A stretch of DNA of 64,000 nucleotides. It comes from Eledone cirrhosa (lineage: Eukaryota). Below, one piece after another: positions 9,995 to 52,417 of this stretch (position 1 is its first letter; every line of letters starts with the position of its first letter). The notes below the pieces were generated by a model, which saw only the letters and a list, made by a program, of their open reading frames with translations, ran no database searches and had not been told where the DNA came from. The DNA lies in assembly GCA_964016885.1 (NCBI GenBank), contig OZ024751.1:14880001-14944000 (forward strand). The letters are read 5' to 3'. Made by a program: the position numbers and the translations under genes.

Positions 9995-10217
9995 TAACGG
10001 AGGAAATGTGGTAAGGAACCAGGTGGACCATAACGCACCAAAGTACTCAATACTTAGGGTAGTAGAGTGGGTAATAGGAACGAGTAGGACCCCGACGGCT
10101 GAGCTCAAGCCGTTTCGACGGCTAATTCTGGACGGAATTAGCCGTCCAGAATTAGCCGTCCAAAATTAGCCGTCGAAACGGCTTGAGCTCAGCCGTCGGG
10201 GTCCTACTCGTTCCTAT
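9995..10217 (-). mobile_element. Fold-back element family F, copy 1 (3' half-hammerhead plus tail)
   Basis: ~60-bp inverted arms containing GAAACGGC..GCCGTC, with a 3x AATTAGCCGTC stutter at the apex; flanked by (TA)n. Confidence 0.85.
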
Positions 10218-11259
10218 ATATATATATATATATATTGTTATGCTTTGGGAGGGTCATGTTGCCAATAAGTGCAAATTCAGAAACGAAATAAATATATAAA
10301 TATATATATTAGAAAGATCGAGTATCGAAAAATCGGCGCACGAGTTAACGAAAAACGAAATTCGATATGAGCGGCAGAGGGCTCAATAATTCAGATGAAT
10401 CAGAGCTATAACTATCGTTAAAATACCGTCACATATAGAACAAGTCCACAATCAACCATACGATTTAAAATCGATAAAGGAAGATTCGGGCCAAACAGAT
10501 AAAAAATATCAATAAAACAATACGTCAATAATTTAAATGAATGTAAATTTAAATGAATGTAAATTTAAATATATATATATATATATTCATACAAATGATA
10601 AAACAGTAGAGATTTCCAGAGGTTGATTGAAGGGGTTGGATTGTCCGTTTTCCCGTTATCTCTGACCTGTGCATCCCCTTTTGTGTGTGTGTGTGTATAT
10701 ATATATATATATATATATATATATATATGAAGAGAGAGAGAGAGAGAGAGAGAGAGAGAGAGAGAGAGAGAGAGAGAGAGAGAGAGAGAGAGAGTATGGG
10801 GGGAGGAGAGATAGCAAGTTCATTTAGTACACGGATCTATACTTATAAACCAGTGTAGTGTCCTGCCATATTTGAGAAATAGTAATAAGACTGATCTTAT
10901 CAGTTTGATAATGGAATGTTGTCCTCTTGCAGGAATTCTGTAACAGAATCGGCTAAATTATTTAACAGGAAGGGGAAATGAACTTTACAACTCACATTTA
11001 TGCAGCTTTAGTTGGCTTTCCTCGAGGTTACATCTCATAACAAGTTTCTCGATCATTTTACTTTAATGATAGAAGCTCTACTCTTATCACGAACAGCAAG
11101 ACGAAATGAAACATCTTGCCCGTTTTAGTTAATGAACCCTTGCTCTTATGATAATATGTCCAACTTGCACCTTAACCACTAGGTCACGAGAAGAGACGAA
11201 GATGAATTTGAGGAAACATTCCACCGGTTCGTTTCCACTTATAAACATGGCAGTAGGTG

Positions 11260-11620
11260 TAGGTGCGTGGCTTAGTGGTTTGGGTGATCAGCTCATCATC
11301 GTAATGTTATGAGTTCGATTCCCGGACCGGGCAGTACGTTGTGCCCTTAAGCACGACGTTTTATTTCACGGTCCTCCAGTCCACGCAGCTGACAAAAATG
11401 AGTTGTACCAGTAATTCAAGGGGCAAGCCTTATCACACGTTGCGTCACACTGAATCTCCCGGAGAACTACGTTAAGGGTGTATGCGTCTGTGGGATGCTC
11501 GGCCACTTGCACGTTAATTTCAAGAGCAGGCAGGAAACAACAGGAGCACTCGTGGTCGGAAACGACGGATGTCCAGCGAACACAATCTGACAGTAATTGT
11601 CTTATTACTGGTATGGAGTT
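11260..11620 (+). mobile_element. tRNA-derived SINE family B
   Basis: A box GTGGCTTAGTGG and B box GAGTTCGATTCC; body similar to 41100-41380. Confidence 0.85.
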
Positions 11621-11915
11621 TATCGATCTGTGTTGAAATGAAAATACAAGGAAAGTACAGAGAAATATCGATCCCCGTTGATATGAAAGTACAGAGAAAT
11701 ATCAATCTCCGATGAAATGAAAGTACAGAGAAATATTGATCTCTGTTGAAATGAAAGTACAGAGAAATATCGATCCTGTTGAAATAAAAGTACAACGGAA
11801 ATATAGCGAAATATCGATCCTGTTGAAATGAAAGTACAACAAAAGTATTAAAAAATATCGATTTCTGTTGAAATGAAAGTACAACGGAAGTAGAGAGAAA
11901 TATTTGGTCCCGGCG
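11620..11915. repeat. ~33-39 bp minisatellite, ~8 copies
   Basis: ATCGATC..GTTGAAATGAAAGTACA..GAAAT repeated. Confidence 0.9.
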
Positions 11916-12061
11916 GACATTGATGCGAGAAATGTGAATGTCACGTGGTGAGTTATCTCTCGATGTCTTTGTTACATTACCATCTGTTCTAATGAACGAC
12001 GAAAAGTTAAATTTAATTATACTTTCAACTGTAAACATTAGTAAAAAAAGGATAAACAGAA

Positions 12062-12578
12062 GTATATATATATATATATATATATATATATATATATATA
12101 TATATGTGTGTGTGTATGTATATATATATATATATGTATATATATATATACATTTATATATATGAATGTATATATATATATATATACATATATATATATG
12201 TATATATATATATATAGTAGAATAATCGAGTTATACAGTATATATATATGTATATATATATATATACAGTATATATATATATATATATATATATATATAT
12301 ATATATATATATATATATATATATATACAGTATATATATATATATATATACAGTATATATATATATATACATACATATATATATATATATATATGTATAT
12401 ATATATATATACAGTATATATATATATATATATATATATATATATACAGTATATATATATATATATATATATATATACAGTATATATATATATATATATA
12501 TATATATATATATATACAGTATATATATATATATATACAGTATATATATACATACATATATATATATATATATATAAT
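12062..12578. repeat. (TA)n tract regularly punctuated by CAG
   Basis: TATACAGTATA recurs about 9 times between 12232 and 12545. Confidence 0.9.
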
Positions 12579-13579
12579 TTTTTTTTTTTTTTTTTGTTAG
12601 TTTGAAAAACTTAATTGAATAAATGAATAATTGATTGAAGAAAACAATTTTAACAATGTCTTAATTAAATTTGTTCATGAATTTCCTTCTGATTCCAAGA
12701 AGACACAATTAGAATGTAGAGCGTCTCGGGTATTTTACGATGCCTTCTAGTATAGATTAAAGGTAATTTCACTTGCTCACGGCATACCAAATAGCAATTG
12801 TCAACTGGGTTGGCCGATATAATAAACAACACGATCATATTAACTTTTGCTTGTAATTTGATGTGAGTTAATAACTTTGAGTGAAAGAAGACAATATAAT
12901 TACTGTAATGTTTAATCAAGGGATTTATAATAAATTAGAGCTACATAACTATTATACAGAACACGAGATGTATTCCTTACTACGATAGAAGGAAGGTTTT
13001 ACTCTGAAAATGGCGGCTATGTTGTTGAGTTCCATTTTAATATATAGAATTTAGCACAACTCTCAAGAGAATTGAATTTTAAATAATAAATTACAGTATA
13101 ATACACACATACACACAGATATATATACACACAGTAATACGCTATCACATACACACACACAGACACAGACACACACACATATATGTATATACGTATATAA
13201 ATATATATATATATATATATATATATATATATATATATATATATACATACATACATTGAGTATAAACATATGTACATATATATACATATATATGTACATA
13301 TGTATGCACATTAATATATCTAAATTAAATAAAAATTAACTATAAACATACTGTATAATTAAATAAAAATGATATATATATATATATATATATGTGTGTG
13401 TGCGTGTGTAATATATATATACATACATATATGCGTGTGTATATATACATATATATGTGTGTGTATGTATGTATGTATGCATGAATGTGTGTATGCATGT
13501 ATGTATGTATGCATGTATGTATGCATGCTTGTATGTTTGTATGTATGTATGTATGTATGTATGCACGTATGTATGAATG

Positions 13580-49986: not shown

Positions 49987-50371
49987 CATATTTATACATA
50001 TAACAATATATGAGGTTATAGAGTAATATTTCACTATTTTCATTGGTAATATGAGATGATGCACTTTGCCATAATTTAGCATGTCTGAAAATCTACGCAA
50101 TCTTTTTTGGCACTTGAAATTTTAATTGCCTGCCTAAATGCACCTTGCTTTGAATCCTCTATTGTTCTTGATACTTGTTATTTTATTATATATATATTTC
50201 CTGAAGAGATACGATCTGAATAAAGCGCCCATAATGGAGTAAATAATTAACTGGTTATATCCAATTCTCTCCACAGATGGATGTGACATTCTAGCCGCGT
50301 TGAAAGTCCATAAAGATATATAAATAAATAACAATATACTATCCTGGGCTTTCTTAAAATTTGAATTACCG

Positions 50372-51870
50372 TATATATAATATATATATATATATATATA
50401 TATATATATATATATATATATAAATATATATATATATATATATATAATATATATATATATAATATATATAATAAATATATATAATATATATTATATATAA
50501 TATATTATATATAATATATATATAAAATATATATATATATATAATAATATATATATATAATATATATATATATATAATATATATATATATATATATATAA
50601 TATATATATATAATATATATATAATATATATATATAATACTATATATATATATATAATATATATATATATATATAATATATATATATATAATATAAATAT
50701 ATATATATATATATATAATATATATAATATATATATAATATATATATATATATATATAATATATATAATATATATATAATATATATATATATATATATAA
50801 TATATATATATATATATAATATATATATATATATATAATATATATATATATATATAATATATATATATATATATATAATATATATAATATATATATATAT
50901 ATATATAATATATATATATATATATATATATATATATATATATATATTATATATATATATATATATATATATATATATATATATTATATATATATATATA
51001 TATATATATATATATTAATATATATATATTATATATATATTATATATATATATATATATATATATATATATATATATATATATATATATTATATATATAT
51101 ATATATATATATATATTATATATATATATATATATATATATATATATATATATATATATATATATATATATATATATATATATATATATATATATATATA
51201 TATATATATATATTATATATATATATTATATATATATATATATATATATATATATATATATAATATATATATATATATATATATATTATATATATATATA
51301 TATATATATATATATATATATATATATATATATATATATATATATATATAATATATATATATAATATATATATATAATATATATATAATATATATATATA
51401 ATATATATATATAATATATATATATAATATATATATATAATATATATATATATATATATATATATATATATATATATATATATATATATATATATATATT
51501 ATATATATTATATATATATATATATATATATTATATATATATATATATTATATATATATATATATATTATATATATATATATATTATATATATATATATT
51601 ATATATATATATATATATATATATATATATATATTATATATATATATATATATATATAATATATATATATATATATATATATATATATATATTATATATA
51701 TTATATATATATATATATATATATATTATATATATATATATATATATATATTATATATATATATATATATATATATATATATATATATATATTATATATA
51801 TATATATATATATATATATATATTATATATATATATATATATATATATATATATATTATATATATATATA
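50372..51870. repeat. ~1.5 kb interrupted (TA)n tract
   Basis: Direct. Confidence 0.97.
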
Positions 51871-52062
51871 GGAACAAGTAGGACCCCGACGGCTGAGCTC
51901 AAGCCGTTTCGACGGCTAATTCTGGACAGAATTAGCCGTCGAAACGGCTTGAGCTCAGCCGTCGGGGTCCTACTCGTTCCTATTACCCACTCTACTACCC
52001 TAAGTATTGAGTACTTTGGTGCGTTATGGTCCACCTGGTTCCTTACCACATTTCCTTCGTTA
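51868..52062 (+). mobile_element. Fold-back family F, copy 4
   Basis: Apex GACGGCTAATTCTG-GA-CAGAATTAGCCGTC; nearly identical to copy 1. Confidence 0.85.
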
Positions 52063-52095
52063 TATATATATATATATATATATATATATATATAT

Positions 52096-52185
52096 GATGG
52101 CCACAAACTCGTGTTCGGGCATTGCCATCGCCTGATAAAATGCTCAAAAATGCGAGGCATGAATGTGGCAACAGTGAGCGTGTGT
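52096..52185 (-). mobile_element. RTE-like 3' end in (TA)n
   Basis: Minus strand TGGCAATGCCCGAACACGAGTTTGTGGCCATCATA resembles the 14107-14142 terminus. Confidence 0.5.
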
Positions 52186-52214
52186 GTGTATATATATATA
52201 TATATATATATATA

Positions 52215-52417
52215 TATGAAAAGATCCAGGACCCCAATGGCTGAGTTGCGGCCGTTTCGACAGCTAGATCCGAACTGTTCGGATCTAGATGTCGAAACGG
52301 CCGGAGCTCAGTCGTCGGGGTGCTGAATCTTTTCATATTACCCACTCTACTACCCTTAGTATTGAGTACTTTGGTGCGTTATGTTCCACCTGGTATCTTA
52401 CCACACCCTCTTTGTTA
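52215..52417 (+). mobile_element. Fold-back family F, copy 5 (diverged subfamily)
   Basis: Apex CTAGATCCGAAC-T-GTTCGGATCTAG, then GAAACGGC and the family tail. Confidence 0.85.

Follow-up and report, generated by a model that had tools for sequence, protein, structure and literature searches.

Short fold-back elements with half a hammerhead in Eledone cirrhosa, probably minimal insertions of Penelope-like elements

How does a short DNA hairpin that carries only the 3' half of a hammerhead ribozyme come to lie, copy after copy, in (TA)n microsatellites? The question is raised by a 64,000-nt stretch of Eledone cirrhosa DNA (GenBank assembly GCA_964016885.1, contig OZ024751.1, positions 14,880,001 to 14,944,000 of the forward strand; hereafter the window), in which an initial annotation, made from the sequence alone, recognised five stereotyped hairpins that we call family F. 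The window is animal non-coding DNA without a convincing gene, and 59% of it consists of simple or tandem repeats; its repeat content appears octopus-like. Here we report an analysis of these hairpins and of related sequences in sequencing reads, which leads us to read family F, with a probability of about 0.7, as minimal insertions of Penelope-like elements (PLEs), each made of two complementary DNAs (cDNAs) joined head to head.

According to published accounts, PLE insertions typically comprise an inverted 5'-truncated copy with, at one end, a tail of 30-40 bp, prefer (TA)n, and arise by a mechanism that is left undefined (PMC8557442). The initial annotation did not name this known class. 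In vitro, both target strands are cut and extended by the PLE Poseidon of Anolis carolinensis (PAc), whose reverse transcriptase (RT) begins synthesis at a pair of internal positions delimiting the tail; the hammerhead need not be cleaved, and a 5'-truncated RNA gives a shorter product (PMC11167929). Pairs of hammerheads on opposite strands, 100-700 bp apart, have been interpreted as truncated PLEs (PMC4209133). In Octopus vulgaris, PLEs are reported at 6.83%, in 190 families (PMC13282606).

Anatomy and hammerhead content of family F

Each family F element is a fold-back of ~190-220 bp sitting in (TA)n (Table 1). A BLAST search of the window with one long arm returned five long arms, five short arms and no further match; all five copies of the initial annotation were thereby located, and no solo or long unfolded copy was found. 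The arms measure 55-61 bp, and in 5/5 copies one of them is prolonged by a one-sided overhang, the tail, of 78-79 nt, which lies on the left in three copies and on the right in two. TA repeats, which make up 7% of the window, begin both flanks of every copy. All short arms terminate in TCCTAT or TCATAT and then run into (TA)n, and we judge the initial annotation to have been right both about this common TAT end and about the TA microhomology at it. Since the long arm and the tail fold no better than shuffled sequences (z 0.12 and -0.37), no special tail structure is claimed.

In the terms of a type I hammerhead, the arms hold GAAA, helix III and NUH, and they lack the CUGANGA core and the 5' strand of helix I; family F is not a complete hammerhead. 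In 8/10 arms the 3' half (C-GAAA, at least 5 Watson-Crick pairs, UH) is intact, a pattern that arose by chance in 25 of 20,000 dinucleotide shuffles, and the arms keep the cleavage site uncleaved. Stem III and GUC had been ascribed to all copies; in copy 5, however, both arms are decayed and the short arm has lost GUC. An exact CTGANGA is absent within 150 nt 5' of each of the ten arms, in agreement with the initial annotation. Rfam gave no hammerhead among the 150 of 288 matches listed for the window, nor among the 29 for copy 1, which had sub-threshold microRNA-type matches only; the database is insensitive here, as it also missed a complete minimal hammerhead motif at 9367.

Junctions, subfamilies and reads

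The segment from GAAAC to GAAAC across the apex measures 58, 25, 31, 30 and 35 nt in copies 1 to 5, which makes five different junctions; those of copies 1 and 4 differ even though the copies are 99% identical. A boundary, GTYC, 17 nt 5' of GAAAC, is reached by 6/10 arms, and the apices can be parsed from it as 17+24 filler+17 (copy 1), 14 on the tailed plus 17 on the tailless arm (copy 3), 13+17 (copy 4) and 17+1+17 (copy 5), the arms of copy 2 overlapping at TTC-T-GAA. The three spacer bases between the arms of copy 3 are part of its tailless arm. We also weighed a "loop flip" between copies 1 and 4, but dropped it in favour of the 17+24+17 parse. The apices fall in or at hammerhead loop II, and in copies 1, 3, 4 and 5 both arms contain loop sequence. 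Three template bases on the tailless arm of copies 3 and 4 are missing from the tailed arm, an arrangement that a single folded cDNA could produce only if the tips were deleted later. The fold had been placed 12-22 nt 5' of GAAAC; because the apical segments of four copies are 25-35 nt, the distance in these is 12-18 nt, and the statement does not extend to copy 1 with its 24-nt slippage filler.

Three subfamilies can be told apart among the long arms: copies 1 and 4 (99% identical), copies 2 and 3 (94%), and copy 5 (79-83% to the others). The two arms within a copy differ at 0, 3, 2, 1 and 8 positions in copies 1 to 5, and arms of different subfamilies at 6-19. The initial annotation had noted copy-type variants on both arms, and subfamily variants are indeed common to both, no alignment column separating left from right; the arms were therefore remade, from one template, at least once per subfamily. 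Resolution at the level of single loci is thin, as one site divides copy 2 from copy 3 on both arms and none divides copy 1 from copy 4.

The family extends far beyond the window. Four of 23 sequencing runs were mapped on 9996-10135 at 82% likeness, and matches numbered 18,919 of 16,285,364 contigs (run X1) and 24,403 of 12,467,656 and 25,108 of 12,785,554 restriction-site-associated DNA (RAD) reads (X21 and X22), figures that are not copy numbers; in a run from another organism (X7) 5 of 23,643,904 contigs mapped. Family F is likely to have many thousands of copies. Among the 24 of 525 rows of loose read ends listed, those at the long end (10001/10007) enter (TA)n in at least 1,205 and at least 2,006 reads of X21, and those at the short end (10074) do so in at least 3,570 and at least 3,089 reads and in at least 97 contigs; both ends are thus fixed family-wide. 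In the same rows the GTYC boundary is preceded by TTA, giving TTAGTY. A pile of read ends at 10127 was rejected as a biological end, since it stands on an AATT site and is hence read as the cut of the RAD enzyme.

Behind 10124, reads of the copy 5 type pass into one shared unfolded sequence (1,738 reads with agreement 0.76 and 1,808 with 0.71), which is also seen in 113 contigs (agreement 0.49). In 30 letters of this continuation, read by eye on the RNA strand, the first bases of the arm find a helix-II-like partner of ~8 pairs (7 Watson-Crick pairs, 1 wobble, 1 mismatch, 1 bulge and a 7-nt loop), 5' of which stand one extra base and then CTAATAC, with neither a valid core nor the GACCCC strand. 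The minimal hammerheads of PLEs have a helix II of 7-8 bp and an extra base (PMC4209133), a geometry that the continuation resembles except for the valid core. Of joints between non-adjacent positions, 15 of 21 rows are listed: 14 switch strand, 12 of which connect 10035-10097 to 10124-10133. Eight of these 12 end at 10130-10133, beyond the AATT site, and read length or a direct 1-2 nt overlap excludes a hidden skipped part.

Sister elements in the window repeat this anatomy. Elements G, H, I and J, at 53039, 14733, 15818 and 47939, have arms and one-sided tails of 67, 97, 93 and 144 nt, and CTGANGA cores occur in G, H and I as well as in solo copies at 527 and 9367. Element K consists of a tail-only arm and, joined to it, an inverted tailless one, and a longer unfolded K copy lies at 9656-9935. 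Given sisters G to K, hairpin-plus-tail anatomy is general here and often asymmetric. The tail motif GTATTGAGTAC, which recurs identically in the core-bearing element at 527, has a core, YGAGTRCY, with 15 hits in the window against 4.5 expected, and it stands 37-60 nt before a TA run in 5/5 family F tails and 6/10 other hits, as against 15% of random positions.

Table 1. Family F copies, two sister elements and the tail motif in the window.
Feature	Positions	Strand	Details
Copy 1, tailed (long) arm	9996..10133	-	subfamily A; tail 9996-10073; hammerhead 3' half ~10094-10116
Copy 1, apex filler	10134..10157		24 nt; slipped repeats of the 14-nt unit 5' of GAAAC
Copy 1, tailless (short) arm	10158..10217	+	runs into (TA)n
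Copy 2	14446..14635	-	subfamily B; tail 14446-14524; arms 14525-14579 / 14581-14635; apex TTC-T-GAA
Copy 3	39489..39683	-	subfamily B; tail 39489-39566; arms 39567-39623 / 39627-39683
Copy 4	51868..52062	+	subfamily A; short arm 51868-51927; long arm 51927-52062; tail 51984-52062
Copy 5	52215..52416	+	older subfamily C; arms 52215-52275 / 52277-52337; tail 52338-52416
Sister G	53039..53247	+	arms ~67 bp; tail 67 nt; tail motif; CTGAGGA core on tailed arm
Sister K	52471..52655		tail-only arm and inverted tailless arm; 10-nt overlap; tailless arm reaches 62 nt further upstream
Tail motif	52004..52014	+	GTATTGAGTAC (YGAGTRCY core); 45 nt ahead of (TA)n end

Origin of the hairpins

Family F behaves like, and probably descends from, endonuclease-containing PLEs (EN+ PLEs), and is known here without an open reading frame (ORF) for RT or a GIY-YIG endonuclease. 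In the pathway we envisage, both activities would be supplied in trans by an autonomous parent. The PLE protein would cut both strands of a (TA)n target (the papers speak of AT-rich DNA), and two short cDNAs would be primed on opposite target strands at two RT start sites 78 nt apart. Both would stop in or at hammerhead loop II and then be end-joined head to head, with 0-3 nt of overlap and small losses or slippage, the arms being made anew at every insertion. The common stop, 17-18 nt 5' of GAAAC, may be the 5' end of the RNA, reached by run-off on a transcript that would begin at the initiator-like TTAGTY, which we slightly favour, or it may reflect stalling of RT at the hammerhead fold. The evidence for two cDNAs consists of the five junctions, the shared GTYC boundary, the extra bases of the tailless arms, the asymmetric joints and the 10-nt overlap of K.

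Several observations weigh against this origin. The tail of 78 nt is twice as long as the published 30-40 nt, and the tail motif was defined post hoc, after inspection. No RT or GIY-YIG match was obtained in the 89 stop-free stretches of the window; a 46-codon open frame has no relative in protein searches and is not significant, being open in 55% of shuffles with a synonymous excess of p=0.12, and a coding role for the long arm was accordingly rejected as unsupported. In the unfolded continuation CTAATAC occupies the place of CUGANGA, and for this reason a working parental hammerhead is not demonstrated. Among the 12 joint rows, four terminate at 10124-10128, on the AATT site at which RAD reads stop, and may be library chimeras; no symmetric hairpin joint appears among the 15 of 21 rows listed, although the tool or the libraries may lose such joints. 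Finally, the asymmetric joints and the variety of junctions could stem from later deletions at unstable hairpin tips.

Erosion of this kind is invoked by the reading in which the hairpin itself is mobile, a few masters being transcribed and copied whole by PLE proteins as a non-autonomous PLE, with tips that decay afterwards. The five window copies would suit it, as all are near-symmetric hairpins and neither solo nor long copies accompany them, and so would an apex position conserved across three subfamilies; moreover, pLTR sequences in cis suffice for mobilisation in trans (PMC3846280). We nevertheless consider hairpin masters unlikely, because no two copies share a junction, copies 1 and 4 included despite their 99% identity, because subfamily variants on both arms call for arms remade at least once per subfamily, and because unfolded and asymmetric forms are present in the reads.

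The initial annotation preferred helix II as a self-primer at the apex: one cDNA would fold back, copy itself as far as TAT and close the insertion by TA microhomology. The apices do fall in or at loop II, a helix-II-like partner (~8 pairs with a bulge) does lie upstream in the unfolded reads, as judged by eye, and palindromes at PLE inverted junctions have been interpreted as self-priming before (PMC3846280). The ~25-nt inner segment that simple self-priming predicts is found, with one substitution, in copy 2 only; copies 1, 3, 4 and 5 carry loop sequence on both arms, the tailless arms of 3 and 4 contain bases that their tailed arms lack, and the asymmetric joints and sister K would need later deletion if derived from one folded cDNA. 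The fixed short end, furthermore, matches a second RT start site (PMC11167929). Self-priming thus seems to us quite unlikely, and its predicted parent, GACCCC-CTGANGA, is absent from the 30 letters of the unfolded continuation and from metagenome contigs, where the animal is not expected; no parent with a complete core was found in the window, the unfolded reads or those contigs. A tree of left and right arms, proposed as a check, cannot tell fold-back apart from formation by two primers.

Short inverted-repeat elements at TA are typical of miniature inverted-repeat transposable elements (MITEs) and Foldback DNA transposons. Family F is likewise short, non-coding, repeated in inverted orientation, flanked by TA and of high copy number. 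Its termini, however, are not inverted repeats, one end being a 78-nt unpaired tail, and its arms do not fall into left and right lineages: clustering by side had been named as the mark of such an element, and the arms group by subfamily, never by side. Together with the significant hammerhead half (25/20,000 shuffles) and with sister families that have full cores and the same anatomy, this makes an ordinary DNA transposon inserting at TA very improbable.

Joined cDNAs of a PLE remain our preferred account, and the comparison with known systems bears on it in several ways. Family F shares with EN+ PLEs (Penelope/Poseidon, Neptune, Nematis) the head-to-head inverted 5'-truncated copy with a tail at one end, AT-rich or (TA)n targets without visible target duplication, and a terminal-region hammerhead with a palindromic loop 3, GAGCTC (PMC8557442, PMC4209133, PMC3846280). 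It differs from them in having no ORF, in lacking the catalytic 5' half and in that both copies stop near the same hammerhead site; its helix III, at 5-6 bp, is long for a metazoan PLE hammerhead. The tandem pseudo-LTR arrangement of EN+ PLEs would show in a long copy, of which the window has none. PAc offers a parallel in its two internal RT start sites that yield a tail, in the cutting and extension of both strands and in its uncleaved hammerhead template (PMC11167929). Its start sites are 30-40 nt apart, at an AC-rich stem-loop inside the ORF, whereas those of family F would be 78 nt apart, in a tail for which a reading frame is not shown. Naiad PLEs, which occur in Octopus spp., also combine a (TA)n preference, a tail and an inverted copy (PMC8557442); they are described without canonical hammerheads, in contrast to the significant 3' half of family F and the cores of its sisters. 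Retrozymes are described as non-autonomous PLEs, and non-LTR retrozymes resemble family F in that they derive from PLEs, are short and non-coding and carry type I hammerhead sequence (bioRxiv 2026.07.22.740005), but they form head-to-tail tandems with complete ribozymes and family F a head-to-head monomer without a core.

A possible but doubtful extension would make family F a non-autonomous "PLE SINE" (short interspersed nuclear element): a short RNA with its 5' end inside loop II, incapable of self-cleavage, would be primed twice and copied by run-off to a fixed end, giving a new hairpin at each insertion and seeding microsatellites with many thousands of near-perfect ones. What fixes the RNA 5' end might then be either an initiator or a 3' splice site, the ribozyme in the latter case being divided by an intron. 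We take TTAGTY to resemble the protostome initiator, a post hoc likeness to a consensus not found in the paper checked; alternatively, and equally post hoc, it may be likened to a 3' splice site, CTAAT lying upstream of it. An initiator is present in the internal promoter of Penelope (PMC2377424), and the end of an intron coincides with a hammerhead in D. virilis (PMC4209133).

Sister elements, neighbouring sequences and significance

Sister G has a variant hammerhead, with CTGAGGA, an extra T, a T before GAAAC and a palindromic AATT loop, and its apex lies just 5' of the core. H (14636-14990) and I (15725-16045) have complete CTGATGA cores and, on the tailless arm, a GAAAT-AT-GTA variant of helix III; the tailed arm of H has lost the GAAA half by a deletion between TAC repeats, copy 2 of family F abuts the tail of H, and a tail of the H/I type also occurs at 1032-1114. 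J (47795-48320) is a 181-bp hairpin (99%) with a one-sided extension of 144 nt in which no hammerhead core was seen; its apex is a near-palindrome, TTC-A-GAA, as in copy 2, and a second small repeat flanks it at 47672-47772 and 48323-48361. Family K carries a hammerhead-like motif with the variant core CAGAAGA, and both K copies adjoin a family F copy. Solo minimal hammerheads ending in (TA)n lie at 9367-9478 and, on the minus strand, at 398-535. The tail motif had no match in metagenome, viral and prokaryote collections, a result of little weight as the animal is not expected there.

Elsewhere in the window, a direct duplication of 30 nt (9935-9994) lies directly left of the tail end of copy 1, and a MITE-like element at 49153-49746 has inverted arms of ~170 nt (80% identity) around a 260-nt spacer. 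A weak C2H2 zinc-finger match at 13780-14076 (Pfam E 0.00085, below the cut-off) is possibly the end of a decayed long interspersed nuclear element. Minisatellite arrays with strong strand skew occupy 17477-26462 (24-bp unit, 9 kb) and 29692-34989 (27-bp unit, 5.3 kb).

Searches of the literature, which left aside subscription papers, Repbase/Dfam and the O. vulgaris repeat library, brought up no account of minimal hairpin PLEs that stop at a fixed place within the hammerhead, and the supplement to the O. vulgaris repeat paper yielded no sequence that matches the motif (PMC13282606). Family F may already be catalogued in a repeat library.

The origin of the head-to-head inverted ends and tails of PLEs is still called undefined (PMC8557442), with self-priming (PMC3846280) set against priming at two sites (PMC11167929). 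With many minimal, young insertions, junction statistics from one assembly could decide between them. Hairpins of this kind would be mistaken in annotation for MITEs or microRNA precursors, and those of family F could be a source of double-stranded RNA.

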